Source: Bacteroidales bacterium | Lineage (GTDB): Bacteria; Bacteroidota; Bacteroidia; Bacteroidales; JACABE01 | Direction: 5' to 3' | Assembly: GCA_038204725.1 (NCBI GenBank) | Contig: JBBRCQ010000002.1 | Span: forward strand, 50,846-114,845 | DNA: 64,000 nucleotides | In this document: piece by piece, positions 13,559 to 50,266 of the stretch | How the letters are laid out: every line of letters starts with the position of its first letter | How positions within the stretch are numbered: the stretch's first letter is position 1 | Notes under the pieces: model-generated | Database searches by the model: none | Told to the model about the DNA's origin: nothing | The model's input: only the letters and a program-made list of their open reading frames with translations | Program-made: the position numbers and the translations under genes

Positions 13559-14572
13559 ATGAAAGTTAGCATTGTTATTCCCTGTAGAAATGAAGCACAG
13601 TATATTGGTGCATGTTTACTATCTATTGTAAAAAACGATTTTGATAAAAATGAACTTACAGTCCTGGTTTGTGATGGATTAAGTACTGATAATACCGTTG
13701 CAATCATCCATGAATTTGCATTAAAATATAATTATATTCATTGTATTGAAAATGCTAAAAAAACAACTCCTTTTGCATTGAATCTGGGTATCATCCAATC
13801 AATGAATTCAGACTTCATTATGATTTTAGGCGCTCATTCTGAATTGTCAGAAAATTATCTTACAGGAATATTAAAAACATTTGAACAACATCCGGATGCT
13901 GCATGTGTAGGGGGATATACCAATAATATCTATGAAAACGATAAAGCACTTTCTATTGGAAAAGCGATGTCTTCAAAGTTTGGTGTAGGAAATGCTCATT
14001 TTAGACTGGGAAATAAAAGTGGCTGGGTTGATACTGTTGCTTTTGGTACTTACAGACGAGTAGTTTTTCAAAATATCGGACTTTTTGATGAAGATTTAGC
14101 CCGTAACCAGGATGATGAATTCAGTTACAGAATGCAAAAAAATGGTTTGAAAATATATTTAAACAGTAATTGTTTGATTAATTATTATGTTAGATCATCC
14201 TATAAAAAATTATTCAGTCAGTATTATCAGTATGGTTTATGGAAAGTATATGTAAATAAAAAGCATAAAGCTGTTACTTCTGTTAGGCAAATTGTACCTT
14301 TTTTACTTGTTGGGTATACCGTTTTAGCAACAATTTTATCTTTTATTTTTCCTGAAGTTTTACCCTTTGCCGTTGGATGTTTATTGGTTTATTTTATAAC
14401 GGCATTCATGCTTGCATTTATCAATGGGGATAAATTAAAAGAAAAATCTGGTATTTTCTGGAGCTATTTATTATTGCACTATGGTTATGGTTTAGGTTAC
14501 CTATTTGGTATCATCAAATTTGTGATTTTGCGAATGCAACCCAATAAAAAGGATGAAGTTCTGACACGATAA
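13559..14572 (+). CDS. Glycosyltransferase family 2 with C-terminal TM segments
   Basis: 337 aa starting MKVSIVIPCRNEAQYI, with a DxD-like region (CDGLSTD) and QDDEFSYR. Confidence 0.8.
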   Translation: MKVSIVIPCRNEAQYIGACLLSIVKNDFDKNELTVLVCDGLSTDNTVAIIHEFALKYNYIHCIENAKKTTPFALNLGIIQSMNSDFIMILGAHSELSENYLTGILKTFEQHPDAACVGGYTNNIYENDKALSIGKAMSSKFGVGNAHFRLGNKSGWVDTVAFGTYRRVVFQNIGLFDEDLARNQDDEFSYRMQKNGLKIYLNSNCLINYYVRSSYKKLFSQYYQYGLWKVYVNKKHKAVTSVRQIVPFLLVGYTVLATILSFIFPEVLPFAVGCLLVYFITAFMLAFINGDKLKEKSGIFWSYLLLHYGYGLGYLFGIIKFVILRMQPNKKDEVLTR

Positions 14573-14707
14573 TATTGATTTTTATTTCTTATTTAAATTT
14601 GTATGGATATAAAATATTAATTTTAAAGATTTATTGAATTTAAAATGTAAACATAAAATTCTAATATATATAATAGAAAAACTCAAAAACAACTTAAATT
14701 AAATAGA

Positions 14708-16252
14708 ATGTTTCAATTAAAGAAAATCTGGGAAGAAAAAACATTGCTTTGTATTTTAACTATTGCATTTGCAGCAAGGTTAATAGCTGTGTTTTTTGCC
14801 AAAGGTTTTGGGATGCATGATGATCATTTTTTAGTGATAGAAGCAGCCCAATCATGGGTAGATGGAAGTGATTATAACAATTGGTTACCCTGGACACCCG
14901 GCAATACAGGTCCTTCAGGTCATAGCTTTTTTTATGTTGGGATACATTATGTCTTATTTACAATCATTAAATGGCTGCAAATTGAGGATCCTCAATCAAA
15001 AATGATTGTGATCAGGCTGGTGCATGCTGTATGGTCATTATTGGTAGTATATTTCGGATATAAAATTGTTGAAATAGCTGCCAATAAAAAGGTTGCCATT
15101 CAGGCAGGCTTGCTTTTGGCTTTGTGTTGGTTCTTCCCATGGATAAGTGTAAGAAATCTTCCGGAAGTAGCTTCTATCCCTTTTCTGATATGGGCAGTCT
15201 GGTTAATTTATAAAAAACAAAACATCAATGCCTTTGCCAGGGAATATTTATGGGCGGGAATTTTGTTCGGTCTAGCCTTTTCAATGCGTTTTCAAACTGC
15301 ATTGTTTATTTCAGGAATAGGATTGGTTATGTTGATTCGTTGGCAATGGAAACCAATTTTGTTGCTGGTTTCAGGCTTTTTGATTTCCATCTTTATATTT
15401 GAAGGATTGGTAGATTGGATTTTATGGGGTACTCCTTTTTCCGAAATGTTGGTTTATATTCAGTATAATATCGACCATTCAAATGATTATATTGTCACAG
15501 CCTGGTATACTTATTTATTATTAATAGGAGGAATACTGATACCTCCCGTCAGCTTGTTTCTGTTTGTCGGTTTCTTAAAAAGCTGGAAAAAATATTTATT
15601 ATTGTTTCTGCCAGCATTTATTTTTCTTGTTTTTCATAGTACATTTCCAAACAAACAGGAACGATTTATACTGACAATTATACCCTTTTTTATAATAGCC
15701 GGTATTTTAGGCTGGAATTTAATTATTAATAATTCTGATTTCTGGAAAAAAAGAAAAAAAACGTTGAAAGTTTGCTGGATCATATTCTGGGTGCTGAATT
15801 TTATTTTAATGCCATTTATATCTACACATTATTCTAAAAAATCGAGGGTGGAGTCTATGGTGTATTTGTCGCATTACAAAAACATAAAATATATACTTAC
15901 AGAAAATACAAATGCAGGCGATACTAAATTGTTGCCTGAGTTTTATTTAGGACAGTGGATACATACTTTCGATATCAGTCAAAGCTATTCTCTTGATTCG
16001 TTAAAAGGATTGTTGAACAATTCAAGATATGAAGATGTATTGCCGAGATTTTTTATTTTTGAAGAATCAAAAAATATAGGTGAAAGGGTTCACAATGTGA
16101 AGCGTTATTTTCCAAATATTGAATATGAAACTACAATATATCCCGGTTTTGTTGATAATTTGCTGTATCGTTTAAATCCTATCAATGCGAATCAAATACT
16201 CATTATATACAGAAATAAAGATTTTTATCCGCAAAAGTTGCAAATAAAATAA
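14708..16252 (+). CDS. GT-C fold mannosyltransferase-like membrane protein (GT22/PMT_2-like)
   Basis: 514 aa, multi-TM. The first-loop acidic motif GFGMHDDHFLVIE resembles the HPDE motif of GT22-type enzymes. Confidence 0.5.
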   Translation: MFQLKKIWEEKTLLCILTIAFAARLIAVFFAKGFGMHDDHFLVIEAAQSWVDGSDYNNWLPWTPGNTGPSGHSFFYVGIHYVLFTIIKWLQIEDPQSKMIVIRLVHAVWSLLVVYFGYKIVEIAANKKVAIQAGLLLALCWFFPWISVRNLPEVASIPFLIWAVWLIYKKQNINAFAREYLWAGILFGLAFSMRFQTALFISGIGLVMLIRWQWKPILLLVSGFLISIFIFEGLVDWILWGTPFSEMLVYIQYNIDHSNDYIVTAWYTYLLLIGGILIPPVSLFLFVGFLKSWKKYLLLFLPAFIFLVFHSTFPNKQERFILTIIPFFIIAGILGWNLIINNSDFWKKRKKTLKVCWIIFWVLNFILMPFISTHYSKKSRVESMVYLSHYKNIKYILTENTNAGDTKLLPEFYLGQWIHTFDISQSYSLDSLKGLLNNSRYEDVLPRFFIFEESKNIGERVHNVKRYFPNIEYETTIYPGFVDNLLYRLNPINANQILIIYRNKDFYPQKLQIK

Positions 16253-22467: not shown

Positions 22468-22788
22468 GATATTTCCAGCTTTTCGGAAGGAGACATTCAT
22501 GTATATCCAAATCCTGTGCAGGATTAGCTGAATGTACAGTTCAAAGGTACTGTCACTGCAGATGGCTGCAGCTATCAATTGTATGATGGAGAAGGCAGGC
22601 TTTTTTCAAGTAATGGAAGTATGCAAATGCTCACAAAAGTAAATATGCAACCTGCTAAAAAAGGGGTTTACTATTTAGTAGTATTGGCTAAAGATGGGAA
22701 TGAGAATGTATTGGAAAGTGGTGATGCAGTAAATGGCCTATCCCCCTTGCCCCCTTTCCAAAAGAAAGGGGGTAAGAGTTCCTCCTGA
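22468..22788 (+). pseudogene. Relic T9SS C-terminal sorting domain with an in-frame TAG (22525-22527)
   Basis: Reads DISSFSEGDIHVYPNPVQD*LNVQFKGTVTADGCSYQLYDGEGRLF...KKGVYYLVVLAKDG. There is no N-terminal body upstream. Confidence 0.6.
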
Positions 22789-26815: not shown

Positions 26816-26873
26816 ATTGATAATAGAATAATTATATTTTCGGTCTTCCGACTTAATATCCAATAACTTTGAA

Positions 26874-26903
26874 ACCCTGACAGGTTTCAAACCCTGTCAG
26901 GGT
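26874..26903. terminator. Bidirectional hairpin between convergent genes (ACCCTGACAGG-tttcaaac-CCTGTCAGGGT)
   Basis: An 11-bp perfect stem in the convergent gap between the receptor stop (26815) and the J-domain gene stop (26976). Confidence 0.6.
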
Positions 26904-26940
26904 TATGTTAATCATTCTCTGTACTTTTGATTATCTTTGG

Positions 26941-36751: not shown

Positions 36752-38206
36752 TCATTTCGATTTATTTTGAATGAGTGTAAGCAGCGATTTGAAATTTAAT
36801 AATTTTAGGAATGAAGCATAAACAATAGATAAAAATACCATCCCAATAAAGTTATACATCCATTTAGTTTCAATAAAATGTTTTGAAAAAATATTGATAA
36901 ATACTACACCGATAGCAAAAGCAAGTATTGAAATTAAAAAACGATAATCTACTTTGAATTTAAATACTTTTTGGGCAATGATTACCTGAATAATTGCACT
37001 CAGAAATTGTGTGATGATGCTTGAATAAGCTGATCCAACAGCTTCTAATCGTGGGATTAAAATAAAATTAAGCGAAATATTCAACAGCATTCCTGTAGCA
37101 GCTATAAAATTCAATTCTTTAAGATTTCCGTTTGCAGTGAGCAATGTTCCAAATACATAAGTAGTTGAAACTGCAATAAATCCCATCATCAGCCATTTAA
37201 AAACAGCTGCGGATTCTTCAACATGACTGGTATATAACAATCCCATAATTTCCATGCTGTAAAAAAAAGAACCGATGGCTACTACCAATGCTAATGTAAT
37301 AAGGAGTTTGTATGATAATTTTACAATATGCACAATCTCTTCTCCGTTTTTAAGCATTTTTGAAAACAATGGAAGCAAAAGCACGGCAAAAAGATATGCT
37401 ATCATATTGGTAGCATCCAGCAAACGATAGGAAGAAGCATAAATTCCAGCTTGTTCGTCACCTTTTGTATTGGGTAACAGCCTTTCTAGCATTACTGAAT
37501 CGATACGGTTGTAGAATGTCATCAACAAAGCCAGGATAGCAAAAGGAAAGCTTTGTTTTATAATCATTATAAAAAATGGTCGATTCCAATTGAGGCGGGT
37601 AAAAGCAGATTTTCGTTTGACAACAATAAATGCAATAATTGCAGTTATCAGATAAGCAGCAGTTTGTGCATATACAAACCATTCTATCTGGAAAGGACCT
37701 GAAATAACATTGCCCCATATCAAGATTCCACAAAATATAATCATTAGCGTTCTGTCCAATACCGAGACAATGCTATCGGTTTTAAACAGCAATAACCCTG
37801 AGATATTGCTTCTTAAGTACAAAACAAAAGAAATTAAAAACTGGTTGAATATCATCCAGCCCAATATATATAACTGATGGTTGCTATATCCAACCAACAG
37901 ACCAAAACTGAGCGTTAATACAGCAAAAACGAAGGCTAACATTAACTTAAGAATCAATATACCCGAAAAGTGTTTGTTGAGCAAATGATTGTTTTGGGCT
38001 ATGTTTTTGTTGTTGAAATTGGTAATGCCAAAGTCTAATAAAATATTGAAAAGAAAAGAAAAATTAAAGATTGCAAAATAAAACCCATAATCAGCAGCAC
38101 CTACCATATTTTGGACAGATCTGTCAATCCCTAAAATCCAAAATGGTTTGATTAAAAGATTTAAAGCTAACAGGAAGATAAGATTGGTAAGAAATTTTCG
38201 CTGCAT
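36752..38206 (-). CDS. Polysaccharide flippase (MOP/Wzx-like)
   Basis: 484 aa with about 12-14 TM segments, in glycan-locus context. Confidence 0.65.
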   Translation of the reverse strand: MQRKFLTNLIFLLALNLLIKPFWILGIDRSVQNMVGAADYGFYFAIFNFSFLFNILLDFGITNFNNKNIAQNNHLLNKHFSGILILKLMLAFVFAVLTLSFGLLVGYSNHQLYILGWMIFNQFLISFVLYLRSNISGLLLFKTDSIVSVLDRTLMIIFCGILIWGNVISGPFQIEWFVYAQTAAYLITAIIAFIVVKRKSAFTRLNWNRPFFIMIIKQSFPFAILALLMTFYNRIDSVMLERLLPNTKGDEQAGIYASSYRLLDATNMIAYLFAVLLLPLFSKMLKNGEEIVHIVKLSYKLLITLALVVAIGSFFYSMEIMGLLYTSHVEESAAVFKWLMMGFIAVSTTYVFGTLLTANGNLKELNFIAATGMLLNISLNFILIPRLEAVGSAYSSIITQFLSAIIQVIIAQKVFKFKVDYRFLISILAFAIGVVFINIFSKHFIETKWMYNFIGMVFLSIVYASFLKLLNFKSLLTLIQNKSK

Positions 38207-38373
38207 ATCGATAATTTAATCTGCAAAATTAACAAAGCTTTTCAAAATTCCTAAAAATATTGTCATTTACAAGCATAGTTTGTATAATTTTGTAAAATTA
38301 TAATAGAAAATGTAGGTTGAATTTTACTTGAACTTCAAACGCAAAGGATACATCTCTGTTTAAAAGACTAATA

Positions 38374-39498
38374 TTGATGATAATAGCTGTAAATACAAGA
38401 CTTTTGTTGAAAGATAAATTGGATGGAATCGGATGGTTTGCTTTCGAAACATTTAAACGGATTACACAACAACATCCTGAGCATCAATTTATATTTTTCT
38501 TTGATCGGCCTTTTCATAATGATTTTGTTTTTGCTGAAAATGTTACACCGGTTGTGCTTCATCCGCCTTCCCGTCATCCGGTATTGTGGTATCTTTTTTT
38601 TGAATGGAGCGTTGTTAAAGCTCTTAAGAAATATAAGGCTGATGTATTTATCTCACCTGATGGTTGGCTTTCATTACGCACTAAAGTGAAGTCTCTAGCA
38701 GTGATTCATGATTTGAATTTCGAACATTTTCCTCAGTTTGTTAAGTTCTCTCACCGCTTATACATGAATTATTTTTTTCATCGCTTTGCCCGAAAGGCCG
38801 ATCGAATTGTCACTGTTTCTGAATATTCCAAGAACGATATTGCAACCATGTATGGCATTTCAAAAGATAAAATTGATGTGGTGTTCAATGGTTCTCACGA
38901 TTTGTATAAACCGGTTAATGATGAAATTAAAAATAAAATAAGAGTAACATTTACCGATGGGAATCCTTATTTTATATTTATTGGATCGTTGCATCCGCGT
39001 AAAAATCTTGTCAATTTATTTAAAGCGTTCGATGTCTTCAGGAAAACCTATACAACAAAAACAAAGTTAGTATTGGTTGGTCATAAACAATGGTGGAACA
39101 ACGAAATCTCCGAAACCTATAATAATATGGAGTTTAAAGAAGAAGTTGTTTTTACAGGAAGACTGGCGCCAGAAATATTGAATGAATTGTTGGCTTCCTC
39201 TCTTGCATTAACTTATGTTTCCCTTTTTGAAGGATTTGGAATTCCAATTGTAGAAGCTTTTTATGCTGAAACTGCAGTAATTACCTCAAATGTTACTTCT
39301 ATGCCTGAAATAGCTGGTGATGCTGCTTTACTGGTGGATCCTTTTTCGATTACTTCTATCGCTGAAGCTATGCATAAAATTGACTCTGATAAAGAATTGC
39401 GGGATTCATTAATAGAAAAGGGTAGAATAAGACGGTTGAACTATAGCTGGGGTCTGACTGCAGAAAAATTATGGGAATCCATTGAAAAGATTTTATAA
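38374..39498 (+). CDS. Glycosyltransferase family 4
   Basis: 374 aa starting MMIIAVNTRLLLKDKLDGIGWF, with the GT4 C-terminal signature SLFEGFGIPIVEAFYAETAVITSNVTSMPEIAGDAALLVDP. Confidence 0.8.
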   Translation: MMIIAVNTRLLLKDKLDGIGWFAFETFKRITQQHPEHQFIFFFDRPFHNDFVFAENVTPVVLHPPSRHPVLWYLFFEWSVVKALKKYKADVFISPDGWLSLRTKVKSLAVIHDLNFEHFPQFVKFSHRLYMNYFFHRFARKADRIVTVSEYSKNDIATMYGISKDKIDVVFNGSHDLYKPVNDEIKNKIRVTFTDGNPYFIFIGSLHPRKNLVNLFKAFDVFRKTYTTKTKLVLVGHKQWWNNEISETYNNMEFKEEVVFTGRLAPEILNELLASSLALTYVSLFEGFGIPIVEAFYAETAVITSNVTSMPEIAGDAALLVDPFSITSIAEAMHKIDSDKELRDSLIEKGRIRRLNYSWGLTAEKLWESIEKIL

Positions 39499-39581
39499 TT
39501 TATGGTTACAAAATCCGTTATATAGGAAACAATACATGAAATTCTGATTCATCGAACGAATCGTTGAAATGTTTGACAATT

Positions 39582-39630
39582 AAGACTGATATATAGTATC
39601 ATTTGCTAAAGTATGATGATACAGTCTTTT
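39582..39630 (+). terminator. Long hairpin + T-run after the GT4 gene
   Basis: AAGACTG...GTATCAT-loop-ATGATAC...CAGTCTT, followed by TTTT. Confidence 0.5.
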
Positions 39631-39648
39631 AAAAACGAATAAAAAAAA

Positions 39649-40281
39649 TTGAAATTGAGTAAAGATATATTGTTAGATCAGGGAAAAAAACTTCCTGTAA
39701 TGGAAGAATTTTACAGTTTGCAGGGAGAAGGATTTCATACAGGTGAAGCAGCCTATTTTATAAGGGTCGGTGGATGTGATGTTGGATGTTATTGGTGCGA
39801 TGTAAAAGAATCGTGGAATGCTGATACACATCCTGCAATTTTTACCGATGCTATCATCGAAAGAGCAACTGGTTTTCCTGCAAAAGCAGTTATTGTAACC
39901 GGTGGTGAACCATTAAATTATAACCTGAATTACATATGCGATCAACTTCAACAAAGAGGCATAAAAACATTTTTAGAAACATCGGGTTCTCTTCCCATGA
40001 GTGGAAAATGGGACTGGATTTGTCTTTCTCCCAAACAAAATATACCACCTGTTGCAGCCAACTTTTTGTTGGCAGGCGAATTGAAAGTAATTATTTCTGA
40101 AGATGCTGACTTTGGATGGGCTGAACTGAATGCCGCAAAAGTAAAACACGGATGTATTATGTATCTGCAACCCGAATGGAGCAAAAGAAATGAAATGATG
40201 CCTAAAATTGTTGACTATGTAATGATGCATCCAGAATGGAAAATATCGTTGCAAAGTCATAAGTATATGAGGATTCCTTAA
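39649..40281 (+). CDS. queE: 7-carboxy-7-deazaguanine synthase (radical SAM)
   Basis: 210 aa with EEFYSLQGEGFHTGEAAYFIRVGGCDVGCYWCD. The track start is TTG at 39649; an ATG (MEEFYSLQ) at 39700 is an alternative start. Confidence 0.85.
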   Translation: MKLSKDILLDQGKKLPVMEEFYSLQGEGFHTGEAAYFIRVGGCDVGCYWCDVKESWNADTHPAIFTDAIIERATGFPAKAVIVTGGEPLNYNLNYICDQLQQRGIKTFLETSGSLPMSGKWDWICLSPKQNIPPVAANFLLAGELKVIISEDADFGWAELNAAKVKHGCIMYLQPEWSKRNEMMPKIVDYVMMHPEWKISLQSHKYMRIP

Positions 40282-40291
40282 GTAAGAGAGA

Positions 40292-40417
40292 TAAGTCGGA
40301 AGTCGGAAGTCGGAAGTCGGAAGTCCGAAGTCGGAAGTCGGAAGTCCGAAGATTGAAGATTGAAGATTGAAGATTGAAGATTGAAGATTGAAGATTGAAG
40401 ATTGAAGATTGAAGATT
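40292..40417. repeat. 18 phased heptamers: 8 x GAAGTC(G/C), then 10 x GAAGATT
   Basis: Direct reading. The GAAGATT copies start at 40348, 40355 ... 40411. Confidence 0.97.
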
Positions 40418-40459
40418 GAAAAAGACCAATTACCAATAATATAATAACTAAAATATAGA

Positions 40460-42418
40460 ATGCAAAGACATAACCTGGTAAGAACAATATTGCTGTTATT
40501 GATGATGGTCTTTATGACAAGTATTTCTTATTCGCAAAAAGGAGTACCATTAAGTTCGAAATCGAAAAAAGCCATCAAGTATTATGAAAATGCCACGCGT
40601 TTTTATGATGCGCGTAATAATTTGTTATGCATTGAAGAATTACACAAAGCTGTGGATGAAGATCCTGAATTTATTGAAGCTTATTTTTTAATGGCAGCAG
40701 TTTACAATGATTTACGGAAAAAGGAAGATGCCATTGTTGCCTATCAAAAAGCCATCGCCATCAAAGAAGATTTTTATCCGGGTGCCCTTTTTGCGCTGGG
40801 TAATCTTCAGCTTTCAATCGGTAGATACGAAGATGCAGGCATCAACTATCAAAAATATTTAGAACTAGATCAAGGATCACCTGTTAATCTTAAGGCGGCA
40901 AAAAAAGCATTGAAAATTATTGATTTTGCCATGTATCAACTTGCTCATCCTGTACCTTTCAACCTGATAAATATGGGAAGCAATGTGAATTCTGAAAATG
41001 ATGAGTATCTACCGGCCATCACTGCTGATGAACAAACGCTTGTAATTACAGTTTGTCGTCAGAGAGATGATCATACGATCGGTCAGGGAAATAAGCTGGA
41101 AGAAGACTTCTATATAAGCCATAAAGTCAACGGTGTTTGGTCGAAAGCCGAAAATATGGGGCCACCATTGAATACGCATGGAAACGAAGGTGCACAATGT
41201 ATTTCGCCGGATGGACAAAATATTTATTTTACCGCCTGCAACCGTGACGATGGTTATGGAAGCTGTGATATTTATTATACCCATAAAATTGGGAATGCAT
41301 GGACAATACCGGTAAATCTTGGTGAAACTGTAAATACATCTAAATGGGAATCCCAACCTTCAATATCATCGGATGGAAAAACTTTATATTTTACAAGTGC
41401 ACGTGATGGAGGAAAAGGAGGTATGGATATATGGAAAACTATATTAAATGAAGAGGGGAAATGGAGTGTTCCGGTTAATTTGGGAGATAGTATCAATACT
41501 ATATTTGATGAAGTCTCACCTTTTATTCATCCTGATAATCAAACACTTTATTTTTCTTCGGACGGGAGATTGGGTATGGGAGGCAAAGATATTTATTATT
41601 CTCGTAAAAATGTGAAGGGAGAATGGGGTAGACCTGTAAATATTGGTTATCCCATCAATACCTATGCCGACGAGATTAATCTCGTAGTAAATGCCAAAGG
41701 TGATTTGGCTTATTTCTCCTCTAACAAACCCGGTGGAATGGGCAGACTCGATTTGTATAGTTTTGAACTGTATCCTGAAGCACGGCCATTGGCAGTTAAT
41801 TATATGAAAGGCAAAGTTTACGACAGCGAAACCAACAGGAATTTAGAAGCCAGATTTGAATTGATCAACCTTGAAAATGGTGAAATGGTTATGCAATCCA
41901 AGTCCAATGCTTTGTCAGGTGAATTTTTAGTGTGTCTTCCGGTGGATAAAAACTACGCATTGAATATTTCAAAAGAAGGTTATTTGTTTTATTCCGAAAA
42001 TTTTTCCATGGAAGGAAATCATTCCGAAATGAAACCTTTTTTGAAAGACTTACCATTAAAACCTATTAAAGTTGGAGCCTCTGTAGTGTTGAAAAATATA
42101 TTCTTTGAAACCGATCAGTTTAATTTAAAACCTGAATCCAAAGTGGAATTGAATAAGCTGATGACTTTTTTGATGCAAAATCCTCGCATGAAGATAGAAA
42201 TCAGTGGCCATACCGATAATGTCGGTACCGAAAAATACAATCTTACCTTATCGGACAACAGAGCAAAATCAGTTTTTGATTATTTGATTGCCAATGGAGT
42301 TGTATCAACACGATTGACATACAAAGGCTACGGATGGTCAAAGCCAATTGAAAGTAATGATACTGAAAGTGGAAGAGCAAATAACAGGAGGACAGAATTT
42401 AAAGTGGTTGCGAATTAA
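40460..42418 (+). CDS. OmpA-family protein with N-terminal TPR repeats and TolB-like (PD40/WD40-like) beta-propeller repeats
   Basis: 652 aa. Signal peptide, TPR region, repeated SPDGQNIYF/SSDGKTLYFTS motifs, and an OmpA_C domain (ISGHTDNVGTEKYNLTLSDNRAKSV...NRRTEFKV). Confidence 0.85.
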   Translation: MQRHNLVRTILLLLMMVFMTSISYSQKGVPLSSKSKKAIKYYENATRFYDARNNLLCIEELHKAVDEDPEFIEAYFLMAAVYNDLRKKEDAIVAYQKAIAIKEDFYPGALFALGNLQLSIGRYEDAGINYQKYLELDQGSPVNLKAAKKALKIIDFAMYQLAHPVPFNLINMGSNVNSENDEYLPAITADEQTLVITVCRQRDDHTIGQGNKLEEDFYISHKVNGVWSKAENMGPPLNTHGNEGAQCISPDGQNIYFTACNRDDGYGSCDIYYTHKIGNAWTIPVNLGETVNTSKWESQPSISSDGKTLYFTSARDGGKGGMDIWKTILNEEGKWSVPVNLGDSINTIFDEVSPFIHPDNQTLYFSSDGRLGMGGKDIYYSRKNVKGEWGRPVNIGYPINTYADEINLVVNAKGDLAYFSSNKPGGMGRLDLYSFELYPEARPLAVNYMKGKVYDSETNRNLEARFELINLENGEMVMQSKSNALSGEFLVCLPVDKNYALNISKEGYLFYSENFSMEGNHSEMKPFLKDLPLKPIKVGASVVLKNIFFETDQFNLKPESKVELNKLMTFLMQNPRMKIEISGHTDNVGTEKYNLTLSDNRAKSVFDYLIANGVVSTRLTYKGYGWSKPIESNDTESGRANNRRTEFKVVAN

Positions 42419-42468
42419 TTTGGAATCTTTTTGATTTGTTTTATGTTTCCAATTTTATCGCTTATTGA

Positions 42469-42741
42469 ATGAATTTCAATAGCATCTTGTTGAATGGCAA
42501 AAGTATCCGGTTGAATGTCAAAAGCATCCGTATGAGTAGCAAAAGCTTATTAACGAATTAAAAAACCAACCGGATGAATAGCAAAAGTATTCGGGTGAGT
42601 GATAAAACCATCCAGATGAATTGCAAAAGCATACTGACGAATGATAAAACCAACCGGACGAATTGCAAATGCATCTGAATAAATACCAAAAGCATTCCCG
42701 TGAATGGCAATACTGTTTCATTGAATTGCTGTAAAGGATTT
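42469..42741. repeat. Degenerate 21-nt tandem repeat, about 13 units (consensus RTGAATNGCAAAAGCATCCGG)
   Basis: Units were phased by eye from 42469. Stops occur in all frames. Confidence 0.8.
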
Positions 42742-43018
42742 GTGAAAGTAAACAAGATTTTTATTGTATAAAAATCTTGTTTACTTTTGATATTTAAGCT
42801 ATGCCATTTAAAAAAACACCTTTGTTCCTTTGTATCTGTAATATAATGAGCGTATAGCATTTCTGCTGATCACTAATTATCTTGCTTTAACATAAAAATT
42901 TAATAAAATATTAATTAATTTAAAAATTATTAGGATTTGAAATCTTTTGATATATTTTTGTCAAAAATTTATTGTTAATCAATTCACAGCACTTACTGAT
43001 TTTTAAAAAATTAAAACG

Positions 43019-43702
43019 ATGAAAAAGGTTTTATTACAAAAATTTAGGATGTATGGCAGTCTAAGAAATGTTTTAACATCCAATGATCTTATCTGGATCA
43101 GTTCTTTGCCATTAAAACAGAAGGTTGAAGAATTTTATGCTTATATGGAAAGTATTGAGAAAAAAGATCATGGTCGGAAAAGTTCAAAGAGTTTTACAAA
43201 AGAAAAAACTCAGGTGTTTGAAAAGATGCTGGATGCCACTCTAATTGTATGTAGTGCTGGAGCTGCTTATGCAGGGGTAATGAACGACGAAAAATTAAAA
43301 GAAGTATTTAACTTTACAAAAAGTTCTTTGAAATTCGGTTACGAAGAAGACGTACAGGAACGTTGCCGGAAAATTGGTGAGGATGCAGCATTAATAGCTG
43401 ATAAGCTTGTTGACTATAATATTTCGAAGGCACAGCTTGATGAACTAAATATAGCTGTAGTAGATTTCTATAAATTAATGGATGTACCCGGTAATGTTAG
43501 GGATAAAAGCAGAGATTTAAATCAGGAAATGATAGCTTTGTTTGATAAATGTGATAAATTACTGAATGAAATCATAGACAAAATGATGCAGACTTATAAA
43601 AACAACCATCCTGATTTTTTTCTGGAATATACCAATGCAAGGCATATAGGGGGATGGAGTAAGAAAAAGAAAGATGAAGGGGAAGAAAAGATTGTATCAT
43701 AG
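43019..43702 (+). CDS. Hypothetical helical protein
   Basis: 227 aa, no recognisable motif. Lys/Glu-rich tail. Confidence 0.5.
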   Translation: MKKVLLQKFRMYGSLRNVLTSNDLIWISSLPLKQKVEEFYAYMESIEKKDHGRKSSKSFTKEKTQVFEKMLDATLIVCSAGAAYAGVMNDEKLKEVFNFTKSSLKFGYEEDVQERCRKIGEDAALIADKLVDYNISKAQLDELNIAVVDFYKLMDVPGNVRDKSRDLNQEMIALFDKCDKLLNEIIDKMMQTYKNNHPDFFLEYTNARHIGGWSKKKKDEGEEKIVS

Positions 43703-43932
43703 GCGGATTGCTGCTTCATTTATTTAAAAAGGTGTAATGTTTGGTAGGGCATTGCATCTTTTTTTGCAAGAATTTGGTGTTTTGTATACTTAGCGATTTA
43801 ATTCGTATCATGATGTACTTTAAAAACTTTATGAACTTTAAAAAATGTTGCATTTTGTTAGCAAATAAAGAAAAGAATGTCTAATATTAAAAAGGTATTT
43901 ATATAAGAAAAATAGAATTTAAAGAATAAAAA

Positions 43933-44697
43933 ATGTCCTACAATCCCAACCGCCATCATCGCCGAAGCATCCGCCTGAAAGGATATGATTATTCGCAGAC
44001 GGGGATGTATTTTATTACAATTTGTTGCCATAACCATAACTATCGTTTTGGGAAAATCGAGAAAGGGAAAATGAAACTGAATAATTATGGTGAAATTGCC
44101 GGAATAGAATGGTTTTGTTTACAGGAAAGGTTTAGTAATATACGATTAGATGCGTTTGTTGTAATGCCTAATCATATTCATTGTATTATCATTATCAAAA
44201 AAAATAAATATACGGGGGCGGGGTTTACCCCCGCCAATACCCTAACCCCAACGTATAATTCCGTAGGGGCGGGGCTTGCCCCCGCCCTAATAGGACAACC
44301 CGCAAATCAAAATTCAGGGATCAACACCGGTCAGATAATCAACCAATATCAATTGGAAGATAAAAACGAAAAGGGCGATCGTAAAGATCGCCCCAACGAC
44401 GAATCAGAAGGGCTAGACGCAGAGGGCGACCGTAAAGGTCGCCCTGACGAACCAATGGACGAAAGGGAAGAAGAAAAGAAGGTGACCATTGGCGCAATCA
44501 TTGGAGCATATAAGTCTTTGGTGTTTAATAATTGTCTGAAATCAGCCAAAGAAAATAATCTGTATTTAGGTAAGTTCTGGCAAAGAGATTTTTTTGAAAA
44601 TATTGTACGCAATGAAGCAGCTTATAAGAAAATAACTGACTATATTATTCATAATCCTGAAAGATGGGAAGATGATAAATTTTATACTAAAGATTAA
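43933..44697 (+). CDS. REP-associated tyrosine transposase (RAYT; IS200-like Y1 HUH family) with about 85-codon internal insertion
   Basis: 254 aa. N-terminal HRRSIRLKGYDYSQTGMYFITICC, HUH motif VMPNHIHCII, WQRDFFENIVRNE, and a catalytic-Tyr helix ITDYIIHNPERW. Confidence 0.8.
   Translation: MSYNPNRHHRRSIRLKGYDYSQTGMYFITICCHNHNYRFGKIEKGKMKLNNYGEIAGIEWFCLQERFSNIRLDAFVVMPNHIHCIIIIKKNKYTGAGFTPANTLTPTYNSVGAGLAPALIGQPANQNSGINTGQIINQYQLEDKNEKGDRKDRPNDESEGLDAEGDRKGRPDEPMDEREEEKKVTIGAIIGAYKSLVFNNCLKSAKENNLYLGKFWQRDFFENIVRNEAAYKKITDYIIHNPERWEDDKFYTKD
44217..44444. repeat. Four GC-rich perfect stem-loops inside the RAYT CDS (44217-44235, 44267-44287, 44373-44393, 44424-44444)
   Basis: GGCGGGG/CCCCGCC; GGGCGGGG/CCCCGCCC (preceded by GTAG at 44263-44266); GGGCGATC/GATCGCCC; GGGCGACC/GGTCGCCC. 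Confidence 0.95.
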
Positions 44698-44700
44698 TTT

Positions 44701-44817
44701 ATGAAATTTACTGATGAATCTCTCGAACTTGCCGTAATCGAATTGTTTGAAATGGAACAAATAGAAACTGCCGGAGATCATCCCGCAACAATACATCACT
44801 CATTTCTTTGTGAATAA
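44701..44817 (+). pseudogene. 38-codon fragment resembling the N-terminus of a type I restriction enzyme R subunit (HsdR)
   Basis: MKFTDESLELAVIELFEMEQIETAGDHPATIHHSFLCE*. The first roughly 20 residues resemble HsdR N-termini (M-x-F/L-T/N-E..LE.A.IELF). The ORF then truncates. Confidence 0.35.
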
Positions 44818-44867
44818 AAAACCCATTGCAATGCGGTTCACATTGGAAAGAATTTAGTAAATATTAT

Positions 44868-45734
44868 TTAAATCCTCTCCAGCACTTTTCCCACCAATTC
44901 TCTTACCGGTTTTTTGTAATCCTGACTGAATTGCTTGGAAACACGGTTGGCAATCAATACACAAATGGTAAGGGTTTCGTGTCCCAGCATAGCGCCTAAA
45001 CCATATAAAGCAGAAGTTTCCATTTCCAGGTTACATATTCTATGATTGTTGTAACGGAATGTTTCCAGTTTATCGTTGATGTCGGGATAGGCGAGTTCTA
45101 AACGTATTTGCCTGCCTTGTGGTCCGTAAAAACCAGGTGCAGTTGCTGTTATTCCTTTATTGAAATCAATTCCTATTTTATCCATTAGTTTTTGAGAAGC
45201 TTTTACAACATAGGGTGTAGGCAGATTTTTACCCCATTGCGTATGTTTGATAAAGGCTGCTGTCATATCATGATCATTAACATCATTGGATGCTTTATAG
45301 AAATGCAACATGCCGTCTAATCCCAGACCATATTCAGACATCATAAATGAATCCACCTCCAGGTCGCCTTGCAAAGCTCCGGAAGTGCCCAGTCTAATGA
45401 TATTTAAGCTAGTGTGTTTGTCTTTTGGCTCCCGCTTTATAAGGTCTACATTTACTAAAGCATCCAGTTCGTTCATCACGATATCAATGTTATCGGGTCC
45501 CATGCCGGTTGAGACAACGCTGATGCGTTTATTGTTGAAATAACCTGTATGTGTACACAATTCGCGATTGAGCACTTTAAATTCAATAGAATCAAACAAT
45601 GCTGATATTTCGGGTACCCGACCGGGGTCACCCACAACGATAATATTTTCAGCTAAATTTTCCGGATGAAGCTTTAGGTGATAGATGCTACCATCGGGAC
45701 TGATAATTAATTCAGATTCTTTTATTTTTGTCAT
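44868..45734 (-). CDS. Nucleoside phosphorylase (PNP/UDP family 1, uridine-phosphorylase-like)
   Basis: 288 aa with IVVGDPGRV, VSTGMGPDNIDIVMNEL, RLGTSGAL and EMETSALY motifs. Confidence 0.75.
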   Translation of the reverse strand: MTKIKESELIISPDGSIYHLKLHPENLAENIIVVGDPGRVPEISALFDSIEFKVLNRELCTHTGYFNNKRISVVSTGMGPDNIDIVMNELDALVNVDLIKREPKDKHTSLNIIRLGTSGALQGDLEVDSFMMSEYGLGLDGMLHFYKASNDVNDHDMTAAFIKHTQWGKNLPTPYVVKASQKLMDKIGIDFNKGITATAPGFYGPQGRQIRLELAYPDINDKLETFRYNNHRICNLEMETSALYGLGAMLGHETLTICVLIANRVSKQFSQDYKKPVRELVGKVLERI

Positions 45735-45819
45735 TGTTAAAACAATTTATTTATTACATTTGTTTAGTTTTTCAAAATTAAGAAATTATACAATATAAAT
45801 ACTATCATTTATAAAAAAT

Positions 45820-46701
45820 ATGAACGGAAAAAAAAACATTCTGGTACCTGTAGATTTTAATCAAAAATCATTGATTGCATTGCAACAAGCTACAAATATT
45901 GCTAAATTACTGAATCATGATATCATGCTGTTGTATGTTCATGAAGAAACCGGGATCTTTTCGAAACTTTTTTCTGATACACAGGACGAAGATAAAATAT
46001 TGGCGACACTTCAACTTAAAATGGATGAAATTGCTAATCAGTATAATACTTCATCGGGTATAAGCATCAAAAGTATGATTGCCAAAGGAAGGGTTTCGTC
46101 AAAAATTGTTGAAATTGCAGAACTGATCGATTCGCAATTGATCATCATGGGTACAAACAGTGAAGTTGAATTTAAAGCAACTATAGGTGCCAATACGCAC
46201 AAGGTAATACGATGGGCAAAGTCGCCCGTAATTACAATCAATGGTCTGCATCACCAGAATGGGTGCAGAAGTATTTTGTTACCGCTTGATTTAAGCATAG
46301 AAACCCGTCAAAAAGTTAGTAAAGCTATTGAAATGGCAAAACATTTTGGAGCAAGCATTAAAGTTGTTTCCGCATTATGGTCAAAAAGTAATGTAGAAGT
46401 TAGCAAAAGATTACAAGCTCAGATGAATCAGGTAATCAACTACATTACTGAAAGAAATGTAGTCTGTCAATCTGAAATTCTGGAAAGTTCGATTTCTGAA
46501 AAAACCTTGGTTCCTATTTTTCTTAAATATGCGAAGGAACAGGGAGATGTTGATCTTATTATGATTATGACGCAAAAAGAAATTGGATTTGTCGATTATT
46601 TTATGGATTCCTATGCTCAGGAAACCATCAGAACTTCTGAAATTCCGGTAATGTGCATTGCTCCTAAAGAAATTGGGATTATTCAATCAAAAGGGTTCTA
46701 A
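45820..46701 (+). CDS. Tandem universal stress protein (UspA) domain protein
   Basis: 293 aa. Two Usp-like halves (NILVPVDFNQKS...; ILLPLDLSIETRQK...). Confidence 0.7.
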   Translation: MNGKKNILVPVDFNQKSLIALQQATNIAKLLNHDIMLLYVHEETGIFSKLFSDTQDEDKILATLQLKMDEIANQYNTSSGISIKSMIAKGRVSSKIVEIAELIDSQLIIMGTNSEVEFKATIGANTHKVIRWAKSPVITINGLHHQNGCRSILLPLDLSIETRQKVSKAIEMAKHFGASIKVVSALWSKSNVEVSKRLQAQMNQVINYITERNVVCQSEILESSISEKTLVPIFLKYAKEQGDVDLIMIMTQKEIGFVDYFMDSYAQETIRTSEIPVMCIAPKEIGIIQSKGF

Positions 46702-46803
46702 TCTAACTTTACCATTGATGCGTGAACGGTTGACTTTTTGTTAGCTTGTATCACCTGTTACCTCATTGATAAAATAAATTTTAATTGTAGTAGAAATAAA
46801 AGA

Positions 46804-48045
46804 ATGATAGCTGAAATAATAAGCATTGGAGATGAATTGCTGATAGGGCAAGTGATCAATACCAACTCTTCGTGGATGGCAATGCAACTAAATATGATCG
46901 GAATTGATGTTACAAAGATGACTGTAATTCCTGATCAGAAAACTGCAATTTTACAAAGTTTGGATGCTGCTTTTCAACATGCGGATATACTATTTATGAC
47001 CGGTGGACTGGGGCCTACCAATGACGATATTACCAAACTCTGTCTTTGTGAATATTATGACTCAAAACTGATTTTTGATCAGGCAAGTTATGAGCGGATT
47101 GAGAAACTGTTTGCGCAAAGAGGCTTTGCTGTAACAGAACTCAATCGTCAACAGGCTGAAGTGCCGGATAAATGCATGGTAATACCGAATATGAACGGTA
47201 CTGCATCTGGAATGTGGTTCGAAAAAAACGGGAAAATACTAATTGCCATGCCGGGTGTTCCTTTTGAAATGAAATCAATGATGAGTAACTTTGTGATTCC
47301 TCGTTTAAAAGATCAGAGTAAAATAGCGCTGTTTAATAAAACCATTCATGTTCAGGGAGTCGGAGAGTCGTTTCTGGCAGAATTGATTAAGGACTGGGAA
47401 GCTCAACTGCCTATGCATATAAAATTAGCCTATTTGCCTCAACCTGGAATTGTAAGGTTAAGACTGAGTGCAAAAGGAGAACAGGAAGATTTGCTGAAAA
47501 TACAAGTGGATTTAGAAATCGAAAAACTTCAAAAACTAATTTCTGACTTGATATTTGGTTATGATGATGATACGCTGGAAGCTATCATTGGTGAATTATT
47601 GCTTTTAAAAAACAAAACGGTATCAACTGCCGAAAGTTGCACTGGTGGTTATCTTTCTCATTTGATTACTTCTGTACCGGGTAGCTCTGCATATTACAAA
47701 GGAAGCGTTGTAGCTTATTCTAATGAAGTTAAAATGAAAATCCTGGGTGTAAGCTCAGCATGCCTCGAAAATTACGGAGCCGTTAGCAAACAGACTGTAA
47801 TTGAAATGGCATCAGGCATTCGTAATATAATGCAAACCGATTATGCGGTATCTGTTTCGGGGATTGCAGGACCTGATGGAGGTTCGGAGGAAAAACCGGT
47901 AGGGACTATATGGATAGCAATAGCCAGTGAAAATGGTGTTGTTGCCGAAAAATTCCTGCATGGTGAAGATCGTGGACGTAATATAAGAAAAGCCGCATTA
48001 TCAGCATTGAACCTATTGAGGAAAGTTATACAGCAGGAATGTTGA
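46804..48045 (+). CDS. cinA: CinA-family competence/damage-inducible protein (MoCF-binding domain + nicotinamide-nucleotide amidohydrolase PncC domain)
   Basis: The track ORF begins at 46738, but the conserved N-terminus MIAEIISIGDELLIGQVINTNS starts at the ATG at 46804. The C-terminal half carries TAESCTGG. Confidence 0.88.
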   Translation: MIAEIISIGDELLIGQVINTNSSWMAMQLNMIGIDVTKMTVIPDQKTAILQSLDAAFQHADILFMTGGLGPTNDDITKLCLCEYYDSKLIFDQASYERIEKLFAQRGFAVTELNRQQAEVPDKCMVIPNMNGTASGMWFEKNGKILIAMPGVPFEMKSMMSNFVIPRLKDQSKIALFNKTIHVQGVGESFLAELIKDWEAQLPMHIKLAYLPQPGIVRLRLSAKGEQEDLLKIQVDLEIEKLQKLISDLIFGYDDDTLEAIIGELLLLKNKTVSTAESCTGGYLSHLITSVPGSSAYYKGSVVAYSNEVKMKILGVSSACLENYGAVSKQTVIEMASGIRNIMQTDYAVSVSGIAGPDGGSEEKPVGTIWIAIASENGVVAEKFLHGEDRGRNIRKAALSALNLLRKVIQQEC

Positions 48046-48538: not shown

Positions 48539-50266
48539 ATGAAAAAAATTACATTTTTAATGGTATTAATTACCGGAATGGTAATTTCTGCAAATTCACA
48601 AACTCTTCATAGCGATACACTTTCAATTAATAATATCAAAGCCCTGGTTAGAGCAGGAGGGATGCAATTTTGGGAAGGTTTTGGTAATTTACCCATTTAT
48701 CAATATCCCAATGGAAGTGGAAAAACCACTATTTATACCAGTAGCCTATGGTTAGGTGGAATGGATATAAATTCACAGTTACATTTGGCAGCAGAACGTT
48801 TTTGTCAAAACGGAACCGATTTTTGGGGTGGTCCTTTAACAACAGATGGTACAGCTTCAACTACATCTACTATAGCTGCAAACTGGGATAAAGTTTGGAA
48901 AATAAATAAGCAAGATTTACTTATTTATTTGAATAGTACAGCTTATCCATCAAATCCTCCTGCTTTTGTACTCAATTGGCCGGCTCATGGGGATACTCTT
49001 CTGCATCAAAGTTATCAATTAGCTCCTTTTGTAGATGTAAATAATAATGGGAATTATGAACCACTTTTGGGAGATTACCCCAAAATATATGGTGATCAAT
49101 GTATCTTTTTTATTATTAATGACCAGAAAATACATACTGAAACAGCAGGAATACCTATAGGTGCTGAAATTCATGTTTTTGCCTATGCTTTTGATAATCC
49201 TTCTGATTCCTCATTATACAATGCTATTTTTTACAAATATAAAATTATTAACCGTTCAGTAAATACATATACAAATTTCTATTTAGGTCATTTTACAGAT
49301 ATTGATATTGGATATTCTATTGATGATTACGTTGCCTGTGATGTTGAACGATCTACTTATTACGGATACAATGGGAGAGCTGTTGACGGATGGGGTTCGT
49401 TTAATTGTTACGATTCTTTACCTCCTGCACAAGGTGTTACAATTTTAGGAGGACCTACAATGGATAAAGACGGTATAGATAATCCAAGCGGAGGATGTGA
49501 TTTTAGTGTCAATGGATTGAATTTTGGAGATAATATTATTGACAATGAAAGAATAGGTATGAGTCGTTTTATTTATTATAATAATTCTATTCACAATATT
49601 TATGGGGAACCTGATACTATATCTCATTACTATAATTTTATGACAGGGTTATGGAAAAATGGAACACCATTAACTTGGGATAGTAGCGGTTATAATCCTC
49701 TTTCTTCAACTACAGCAAGATTTATGTTTCCCGGGTTATCGGATACTTTAAATTGGGGAACAGGTTGTGGCGTTAGACCTACACCCAATGATTGGTCTGA
49801 GGTTGATATGCAAAACGCTCCAGGTGATAGGCGTGGATTGGCTTCAATGGGACCTTTTACTTTTAATGCCGGAGCTACTCAGTATGTTGATATCGTTTAT
49901 ACTACTGCTACATCTTATAATTTTAAATCTTCTTCTGTAGATGTGATGAAACAAAGAATTGATCATATTCGGGATCTGTTTGTAAACTCTCCGGAAATCT
50001 TTCAAGGTTATGTGGGCGTTTCAGAAAAGGAAGAAATGAAGTTTAATATTTATCCAAATCCTGCTTCTGAATATATTATGATTGAAGGAATTGGTTTAAA
50101 AAAGTCAAACTACATACTTTACAATATTGTAGGGCAATCAGTTATGGTTGGAAAATTAGAAAATAACAGTTCAAAAATAGATATTGCGAGATTAAATTCA
50201 GGCATCTATTTTATGCAGTTAAAAACAGAAAACTTAACCAGAACGATTAAGTTTATTAAAAGATAA
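48539..50266 (+). CDS. Secreted hypothetical protein with T9SS C-terminal sorting domain
   Basis: 575 aa. Signal peptide; C-terminal sorting domain FNIYPNPASEYIMIEG...GIYFMQLKTENLTRTIKFIK. Confidence 0.7.
   Translation: MKKITFLMVLITGMVISANSQTLHSDTLSINNIKALVRAGGMQFWEGFGNLPIYQYPNGSGKTTIYTSSLWLGGMDINSQLHLAAERFCQNGTDFWGGPLTTDGTASTTSTIAANWDKVWKINKQDLLIYLNSTAYPSNPPAFVLNWPAHGDTLLHQSYQLAPFVDVNNNGNYEPLLGDYPKIYGDQCIFFIINDQKIHTETAGIPIGAEIHVFAYAFDNPSDSSLYNAIFYKYKIINRSVNTYTNFYLGHFTDIDIGYSIDDYVACDVERSTYYGYNGRAVDGWGSFNCYDSLPPAQGVTILGGPTMDKDGIDNPSGGCDFSVNGLNFGDNIIDNERIGMSRFIYYNNSIHNIYGEPDTISHYYNFMTGLWKNGTPLTWDSSGYNPLSSTTARFMFPGLSDTLNWGTGCGVRPTPNDWSEVDMQNAPGDRRGLASMGPFTFNAGATQYVDIVYTTATSYNFKSSSVDVMKQRIDHIRDLFVNSPEIFQGYVGVSEKEEMKFNIYPNPASEYIMIEGIGLKKSNYILYNIVGQSVMVGKLENNSSKIDIARLNSGIYFMQLKTENLTRTIKFIKR

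Follow-up and report, generated by a model that had tools for sequence, protein, structure and literature searches.

The DNA analysed here is a stretch of 64,000 nucleotides from a Bacteroidales bacterium (contig JBBRCQ010000002.1, forward strand; hereafter the window), and the gene in question is an open reading frame (ORF) at position 43933 whose protein record has no name and no precomputed Pfam domain. We propose, with a probability that we put at about 0.85, that this ORF encodes a Y1 (HUH/tyrosine) transposase associated with repetitive extragenic palindromes (REPs), that is a REP-associated tyrosine transposase (RAYT or TnpA-REP) of subclass 2.4, and that its coding sequence holds four REPs of the GTAG family in a segment corresponding to a loop of the protein. 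The subclasses of TnpA-Y1 are those of Quentin, Siguier, Chandler and Fichant (2018, BMC Genomics 19:475; PMC6006769), in which in-frame REPs situated between the HUH and Tyr motifs of tnpA-REP genes are the unique hallmark of subclass 2.4, and this subclass is equivalent to RAYT group 4 of Bertels et al. (2017; PMC5581495). The arrangement is already published as the hallmark of that subclass and the window gene is a further example of it, not a new principle; what it adds is one more unannotated member of a published class, and the class can be recovered from raw sequence alone. To simplify the presentation below, we will refer to the four hairpins as REP units 1 to 4, and to copies with a GTAG foot on the coding strand as forward and those in the opposite orientation as reverse. 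Coordinates are collected in Table 1.

Table 1. Features of the window gene and its surroundings, and homologous loci (L numbers) in which a RAYT gene is linked to type I restriction-modification (R-M) genes
Feature	Position	Strand	Remarks
Probable RAYT gene (TnpA-REP, subclass 2.4 type)	43933-44697	+	254 aa, unbroken ORF
HUH motif codons P79-N-H81-I-H83	44167-44181	+	aligned to PEHMH of 4ER8
GC-rich insert, beta3-alphaC loop	44212-44457	+	residues 94-175, about 82 codons; from pLDDT, alignment and GC
REP unit 1	44217-44235	+	forward; 7-bp GGCGGGG/CCCCGCC, loop tttac; translated GAGFTPA
REP unit 2	44263-44287	+	forward; GTAG + GGGCGGGG-cttgc-CCCCGCCC, 8 bp (stem-loop 44267-44287); translated VGAGLAPAL
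Two 49-nt direct repeat units, one reverse REP each	44351-44450	+	start-to-start 51 nt (17 codons)
REP unit 3	44373-44397	-	reverse; GGGCGATC-gtaaa-GATCGCCC, 8 bp (44373-44393), foot CAAC; translated GDRKDRPN
REP unit 4	44423-44448	-	reverse; (A)GGGCGACC-gtaaa-GGTCGCCC(T), 9 bp (44423-44445), foot TGAC; translated GDRKGRPD
WQRDFFENIVR segment, W216-R226	44578-44610	+	aligned to WQPRFWEHAIR of E. coli TnpA-REP (GTAG-foot contact)
Catalytic Tyr motif D-Y237-I-I-H-N-P	44638-44658	+	aligned to DYIYINP of 4ER8
Probable hsdR 5' stub, 38-codon ORF	44701-44817	+	first 19 residues match HsdR N-terminus of closest relatives
R-M-linked RAYT loci	L081 665-4668; L083 1725-6871; L022 7242-14070; L039 7294-14001; L079 6106-14153		
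Further R-M-linked RAYT loci			L009, L042, L053, L058, L060

The original prediction had described an uninterrupted ORF of 254 residues with HUH and Tyr motifs, and both an ORF scan and the alignment of the motifs bear this out. The HUH motif is contained in VMPNHIHCII (residues 77-86) on a strand predicted at residues 81-88, and P79, H81 and H83 are invariant in an alignment of 35 homologues; Tyr237, carried by ITDYIIHNPERW, is situated at the end of a predicted helix (residues 228-239) and is invariant in the same alignment together with I238 and N241. The gene encodes an intact Y1 catalytic core. A database search returned 7651 homologues of 173-348 aa, several of them named 'REP element-mobilizing transposase RayT' by the Joint Genome Institute (JGI). 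Escherichia coli TnpA-REP (RayT/YafM; 4ER8, Messing et al. 2012, PMC3479197) is the sole PDB sequence matched by a profile of the 35 homologues, through the HUH strand and the WQ...YIxxNP region, and it also ranks first when the AlphaFold model of the window protein is compared with the PDB by Foldseek (4er8_A, E = 5.7e-5, template modelling score 0.62, target-normalised), followed by the transposases of ISDra2, IS608 and IS200. With residues 92-177 removed, the protein matches PF01797 (Y1_Tnp) in one stretch (profile positions 39-119) at 29.3 bits, above the cut-off of 23, and the NCBIfam model REP_Tyr_transpos scores 68 bits (E = 6.6e-19) on the insert-free protein. We considered and rejected an IS200/IS605 insertion sequence, as the NCBIfam model transpos_IS200 gives 16.8 bits (E = 0.006) where 55 are needed and there are no hairpins in the flanks of the gene. 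None of the PADLOC models matches the protein.

The GTAG foot is contacted in E. coli TnpA-REP by W94, Q95, W99, E100, H101 and R104 (PMC6006769, Fig. S11). Four of these six residues (W, Q, E and R) are identical in the window protein, and the other two are replaced (W99 by F, H101 by N). In the subclade to which the window protein belongs, the contact segment WQRDFFENIVR has Asn in place of the His found in most homologues and in E. coli (YYEHIIR and FWEHAIR respectively), and in the same subclade the feet of the reverse REPs are non-canonical (CAAC, CGAC and AAAC).

The four hairpins fall within an insert that the AlphaFold model places between the HUH strand (81-88) and a helix at residues 186-207. 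Residues 94-175 have a predicted local distance difference test (pLDDT) score below 50 and no secondary structure, as compared with scores above 90 in the core, and the corresponding DNA has a G+C (GC) content of 0.49-0.55 in 100-nt windows across 44200-44500 as compared with about 0.33 for the whole window. Alignment of the homologues locates all of the length variation of the family at this position, where the insert is hypervariable in both length and sequence, and the peptides that recur in the loop include VGAGFTPAQ, VGATLAVAQ, RAGASPAPT, ATARVAPT, GQPQGIAPT, GRGELHSP and GDRKGRP. A GC-rich extra segment of about 85 codons between HUH and the next conserved part had been recognised earlier from the sequence, with the suggestion that modelling might reveal a disordered surface loop; alignment and GC content agree with the segment, at about 82 codons, and the low pLDDT agrees with the disorder. 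Together these predictions suggest that the insert is a disordered loop on an intact catalytic core, the translation of which is tolerated by the protein. In two homologous loci, L009 (about 10300-10750) and L079 (about 10300-10800), the loop has grown to about 30 tandem short units (GQPQT/GQPQI and GAPANV[LS] respectively), and the resulting RAYT proteins of 322-346 aa are still in frame.

Four hairpins in the window gene

An inverted-repeat scan finds the same four perfect stem-loops, and the GTAG at 44263-44266, that the original prediction had listed, and extends hairpin 4 from 8 to 9 bp. Unit 2 is a canonical REP, with a GTAG foot and three G-C pairs at the base of its stem. Unit 1 is decayed, the eighth (outermost) pair and the GTAG foot both being gone. 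Units 3 and 4 are in the opposite orientation, their loop being the reverse complement of tttac and their feet departing from the canonical CTAC. In all, the 64-kb window contains six GC-rich hairpins (stem of at least 7 bp, loop of 3-8 nt), four of which are in the RAYT gene, as compared with 0-2 per 64 kb in order-1 Markov resimulations with the same dinucleotide frequencies. Both hairpin motif patterns have an expected number of occurrences of 0.00 in 100 dinucleotide-preserving shuffles of the window, and the 266-nt segment folded as single-stranded DNA has a z-score of -4.6, none of 200 shuffles folding as well. Long-range pairing of forward with reverse units, as in a true REPIN hairpin, was rejected, since each unit folds alone and the spacers are non-complementary, and sense-strand intrinsic terminators were rejected as well, since no T-run follows any of the four hairpins. 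T-rich tails come after hairpins 3 and 1 when these are read on the antisense strand (44394-44372 and 44234-44212 respectively); by consensus match only, they are terminator-like and could stop antisense transcription into the gene.

The two forward units (44215-44235 and 44266-44286) are 51 nt apart, as are the two direct repeats carrying the reverse units, and because of this common spacing we suggest that tandem duplication may account for the second forward and the second reverse copy. The four hairpins had initially been regarded as four insertions that leave the ORF unbroken; that they are in frame holds, although four is probably too many events given the 51-nt spacing in both pairs. 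The spacing is also relevant to a different explanation, in which the REP pair with its feet outward is an active module that can be excised or expanded, and in which cleavage and rejoining, or slippage, would alter the loop and lead to programmed protein variation or on/off switching. Such a module could account for the equal periods of forward and reverse duplication within a gene (51/51 nt in the window, 48/48 nt in L002), for the highly variable loop length with tandem units of about 10-17 codons in up to about 30 copies (L009 and L079), and for the replacement of the whole top of the unit 2 stem between the window and L081 (GGGG/CCCC as compared with AACC/GGTT), which is hard to achieve by stepwise mutation. 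However, every inspected loop is in frame, the sole stop codon (in L017) is outside the loop, there is no sign of phase-variable frameshifts, and repeat-driven slippage needs no enzyme. We consider an active module of this kind very unlikely.

Hairpin structure and encoded peptide

The DNA of 80 homologous loci was taken, mostly from Bacteroidota but including Chloroflexota, Cyanobacteria and a few others, and loop statistics were compiled for the 63 genes among them that were delimited by script. Cultured carriers among these loci include Confluentibacter lentus HJM-3 (L039), Labilibaculum filiforme 59.16B (L079), Pedobacter jejuensis TNB23 (L034) and Hanamia caeni BO-59 (L027). A first regular-expression gene finder missed 18 of the 80 loci, and these are left out of the statistics; seven of the 18 were recovered by motif, all with HUH, WQ and Tyr in a single frame, and the stop codon of L017, which is among the seven, precedes the HUH motif. 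The loops of the 63 genes have 7.6 perfect GC hairpins per kb, as compared with 0.16 per kb in the remainder of the genes and 0.21 per kb in flanks totalling 923 kb, and if one mismatch is allowed 59 of the 63 genes have at least one loop hairpin. The number of perfect loop copies per gene ranges from none to at least 6. Among 100 loop hairpins, 89 have a GGGC...GCCC base under a variable 4-bp top, 34 have GTAG as the four preceding bases and 27 have CTAC as the four following bases. The REPs of subclass 2.4 likewise have a stem base of three G-C pairs, and 'double foot' REPs exist among them (PMC6006769). Because of this base and these feet, the loop hairpins have the canonical GTAG REP architecture, and the hairpins of the window are real and of this type, as had been proposed from the GTAG next to a GC-rich hairpin; foot and GGGC/GCCC base both match the subclass 2.4 REP. 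The four genes in which no hairpin was detected include cyanobacterial genes with the peptide VGAGL...KPAPT, which suggests that these carry the long 'double foot' type of REP.

Within the window, hairpins 3 and 4 differ at two of 21 positions, and these are exactly the two members of one pair (T:A in one and C:G in the other), as the original prediction had pointed out. The parts of the 51-nt units around the hairpin contain 11 differences in 28 positions (2 of 21 against 11 of 28, Fisher p = 0.025). The closest relatives, L081, L083 and L085 (about 53% identity), keep the order of two forward and two reverse copies at corresponding positions, yet the stems have changed in a compensated way: unit 3 is GATC/GATC in the window, GACC/GGTC in L081 and GGACGACC/GGTCGTCC in both L083 and L085, and the top of unit 2 is wholly different in L081, as described above.

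The same is seen in the family at large. A covariation sample was chosen by the 5' eight bases GT[AG]GGGGC alone, the register being set by the downstream GCCC alone, so that the four positions of the top were unselected; all four are Watson-Crick paired in 53 of 68 cases, with 18 different tops. A second set consists of 25 distinct 25-mers, including window units 3 and 4 as reverse complements. Here 97.5% of cells are paired as compared with 78% in shuffles, and 41 cells have changed on both sides as compared with 16, values that none of 500 shuffles reaches, although the 25-mers are related by descent and the pairing figures overstate their independence. All four variable pairs contribute to these changes, and pairing falls to 35-59% when the register is slid.

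The peptides show no such constancy. Forward copies are read in both TAG-free frames and reverse copies in all three, with the consequence that one hairpin encodes unrelated peptides depending on frame and orientation (VGAGFTPA, RGELHSP, GQPQGLP, ATARVAPT and GDRKGRP). This bears on the possibility that what is selected is a low-complexity linker rich in Gly, Ala, Pro and Arg, and that the hairpins are a by-product of GC-rich codons. GGN, GCN and CCN codons are intrinsically partly self-complementary, and the segment is in frame and translated in every inspected homologue, as a selected linker would be. We redrew the window peptide with synonymous codons under three schemes (codon usage of the window, uniform usage, and permutation of the insert's own codons). 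Four hairpins were obtained in none of the 5000 trials of any scheme, the maximum being 2-3, and on this ground amino-acid composition was rejected as the source of the hairpins. Moreover the insert codons GGG, GCG and CCC are the rarest for their amino acids in the window, and the peptide is predicted to be disordered, so that we regard a selected linker as extremely improbable.

Because the stems are compensated, the frames and orientations vary and synonymous redraws do not regenerate the hairpins, it is the hairpin structure and not the peptide that is conserved. This had been suspected from hairpins 3 and 4 alone, and covariation, synonymous redraws and the use of several frames now agree on it; conservation of the peptide without hairpin potential was not seen in the homologues. 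In imperfect reverse copies, C.A mismatches as read on the sense strand (G.T on the REP strand) predominate by 19 occurrences to 2, an asymmetry that amounts to only 5 as compared with 2 distinct sequences, one lineage (GGGCAACC-acaagg-GATTGCCC) being dominant. This is a hint that the constraint acts at the level of DNA rather than mRNA.

Arrangement of the REPs and the case for passengers

In all 22 genes with copies in both orientations the forward copies precede all of the reverse copies, with the feet outward (GTAG-REP ... REP-CTAC), and the window, with two forward units followed by two reverse units, has the same order. The first forward foot is situated 4-16 aa after HxH in 40 of 46 genes, and in most genes 30-43 aa separate the last reverse foot from the W of WQR that follows it; from these distances the REPs abut the conserved core on both sides. 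We did not find the forward-before-reverse order in the literature, and the accessible part of PMC6006769 does not discuss orientation order, stem covariation or a type I R-M context. Extragenic inverted pairs in two metagenome loci (L101 and L153) have the opposite order, with the feet inward. Almost all members of this widespread subclass of enzymes retain their substrate hairpins within the gene itself, with compensated stems and the forward copies first.

Outside the genes, the same hairpins are found within 500 bp in about 16 of the 63 homologous loci, and almost none are found farther out in Bacteroidota flanks, which fits the finding of Bertels et al. (2017, PMC5581495) that the flanking 16-mers of group 4 occur only about 14 times across the replicon. 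Two Chloroflexota loci, L022 included, have more flank hairpins than Bacteroidota. In L022 (Anaerolineaceae), seven REPs in the same orientation, GTAC-GGGCGACC-cttgc-GGTCGCCC, are spaced 91-120 nt apart at 14148-14779, directly after the hsdR stop of an hsdM-hsdS-RAYT-hsdR operon. Unit 2 is the only GT[AG]GGGGC in the window, and an exact-pattern scan of metagenome contigs finds a 25-mer of its type (GTAGGGGCGGGGYTTRCCCCCGCCC) in at least 120 stretches. The 80 metagenome loci that were readable contain 87 matches, of which 84 have no RAYT core within 1 kb by a detector that found 70 of 80 positive controls; 38 of these 84 have at least 700 nt on both sides, and 46 are less than 700 nt from an end of the available DNA. 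The median GC content of the loci with this 25-mer is 0.56. Because most of these matches have no RAYT core nearby, the unit-2-type sequence occurs as a dispersed REP elsewhere, in genomes richer in GC, whereas in the lineage of the window the demonstrated copies are intragenic.

Comparison with described systems places the gene in subclass 2.4, which is known from Cyanobacteria, Bacteroidetes and scattered phyla and has the motifs NH[IFV]H, WQ and YIxNNP (PMC6006769, Table 1). NHIH and WQ are exact in the window protein, and its Tyr motif, YIIHNP, is one position off, a form also present in homologues P0010, P0012, P0015, P0036 and P0050. It shares with subclass 2.4 a beta3-alphaC insertion of variable length forming a peripheral or disordered loop, as well as in-frame REPs with a 5' GT[AG]G foot and a G-C stem base. 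REPs are found within 1 kb of the large majority, though not all, of subclass 2.4 genes (PMC6006769), and unlike most of them the window gene has no flanking REPs in 64 kb; on every other feature tested it fits the subclass. A further departure from canonical subclass 2.4 REPs is that three of the four window units have degenerate feet. E. coli TnpA-REP has the same fold, the HUH and YIxxNP motifs, a WQ...E..R foot-reading segment and a substrate of the same type, namely a GTAG foot with a GC-rich hairpin. However, the REPs of E. coli lie outside genes, run into the hundreds and form long stems with bulges, and the E. coli gene is flanked rather than interrupted by REPs and lacks the beta3-alphaC insertion. 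The transposases of IS200/IS605 elements (IS608, ISDra2) share superfamily, fold and the recognition of hairpins in single-stranded DNA, but their hairpins lie at the ends of the element, on one strand and outside the gene, and the elements are multicopy. A classical REPIN-RAYT system (groups 2/3; Bertels and Rainey) has a single-copy RAYT flanked by REPs or REPINs and many extragenic copies in the genome; the window gene differs in having no extragenic copy within 64 kb and a REP_Tyr_transpos score below cut-off. Palindromic repeats in frame within functional ORFs are also known as intragenic GTAG/CGTC REPs and Rickettsia palindromic elements (Di Nocera et al. 2013, PMC3733652), which often occur as dimers or clusters, encode 20-80 residues and are thought to be tolerated in loops. 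Those elements mostly sit in genes for replication and repair, and their insertion is species-specific, whereas here the repeat sits in the gene of an enzyme whose family acts on it and the arrangement is subclass-wide and found in several phyla.

The explanation that we favour is that the one permissive loop of the gene was entered by a REP, or by two REPs as an inverted dimer, from the family cognate to the enzyme, and that local tandem duplication of 51-nt units then gave two forward and two reverse copies. The copies would remain hairpins because at the level of DNA they would still be REP elements, on which the enzyme could act and with which it or sister REPs could recombine, so that whole stems would be swapped and single pairs compensated. 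The protein would merely tolerate the translated REPs as a disordered and compositionally odd linker. We infer that the intragenic REPs are linked passengers travelling with the gene, and we prefer this to a tuned regulatory site.

Several points weigh against the assignment or against its passenger part. PF01797 gives only 22.2 bits with the full-length protein (cut-off 23), and in the C-terminal half only, and REP_Tyr_transpos, a model built around proteins of the E. coli type, stays at 59-68 bits under its equivalog cut-off of 80. The canonical GTAG foot is present in one of the four hairpins only, so that units 1, 3 and 4 may escape recognition by the enzyme. Outside the RAYT gene, the 64-kb window is devoid of family hairpins, even with one mismatch allowed, and of GT[AG]GGGGC and GCCCC[TC]AC; the flanking REPs usual for subclass 2.4 are thus missing, and the REPs here are not demonstrably repetitive or extragenic. 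We found no report in the literature of biochemical activity for any member of subclass 2.4. Finally, the near-universality of the hairpins (59 of 63 genes), their position next to the core and the compensation of their stems are expected also of a selected cis-element.

Such an element would be a cis-regulatory site at which the enzyme binds its own gene (as single-stranded DNA at a replication fork or transcription bubble) or its mRNA, or at which the hairpins slow transcription or translation, and expression of a potentially genotoxic nuclease would thereby be kept low. Beyond the prevalence and conserved positions of the hairpins, it is favoured by compensation both in positional counterparts and across the family, by the forward-before-reverse order in 22 of 22 genes, by the four GTAG-contact residues shared with E. 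coli TnpA-REP and by the terminator-like antisense tails at hairpins 1 and 3, the last being a consensus match only. Copy number, spacing, stem and frame vary freely among relatives, however, unlike those of a tuned operator; three of the window hairpins lack the canonical foot and none is followed by a sense-strand T-run, and the C.A mismatch bias hints at a constraint on DNA rather than on mRNA. In the literature we found no experiment on regulation, nor any work after 2018 testing the function of intragenic REPs. On balance a selected cis-regulatory site seems to us unlikely.

Type I restriction-modification context and neighbouring genes

Directly after the RAYT stop codon in the window there is a 38-codon ORF, 11 of whose first 19 residues are identical to the HsdR that follows RAYT in relatives (E = 1e-4, for a single comparison); the next gene is unrelated and lies on the opposite strand. 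The RAYT genes of the closest relatives are situated between hsdS and hsdR in a type I R-M operon. An HsdR homologue is present in 14 of the 80 homologous loci and in none of 484 kb of metagenome control loci, and in every locus mapped against a delimited RAYT gene hsdR is downstream of RAYT on the same strand. The operon has the order hsdM-[rhuM]-hsdS-RAYT-hsdR on one strand, with hsdM and hsdS upstream of RAYT and 4-nt stop/start overlaps in L022, L009 and L039. The HsdR proteins form two C-terminal families with 24-88% mutual identity, and in a neighbour-joining tree of the RAYT core the R-M-linked genes fall at scattered positions. Because of the stub, the window RAYT gene looks like a remnant of an hsd operon. 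We found no link between RAYTs and type I R-M in the literature, and restriction is not mentioned in the part of PMC6006769 that is accessible; if real, this placement would tie a family of 'domesticated transposases' to defence loci. A more far-reaching proposal would take the REP pair with its feet outward as an ancient selected cis-site, for self-sensing or self-limitation or for remodelling of the loop, and, separately, the RAYT subclass as a recurrent, functionally integrated accessory of type I R-M operons with the window gene as a remnant; we regard this proposal as distinctly unlikely.

The neighbouring genes (48539-50266 on the plus strand, and 36752-48045) encode a Por_Secre_tail protein (type IX secretion sorting), a TPR/PD40/OmpA protein, glycosyltransferases, CinA and a universal stress protein, from which the surroundings look like the chromosome of a low-GC member of the Bacteroidota and not like a mobile element. 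Scans of the 64-kb window for Rfam families and tRNAs found neither. Locus L057 has, at 11002-11433, seven copies of GCGGGCA-aggaTGCCCGC mostly 66 nt apart (with one gap of 84), which resemble a CRISPR array and do not belong to the REP family. The remaining two of the six GC-rich hairpins, with a perfect 12-bp stem AACCCTGACAGG and a loop of 8 at 26873-26904 and with a perfect 9-bp stem CCCCCTTTC and a loop of 5 at 22750-22772, are unrelated in sequence to the REP family.

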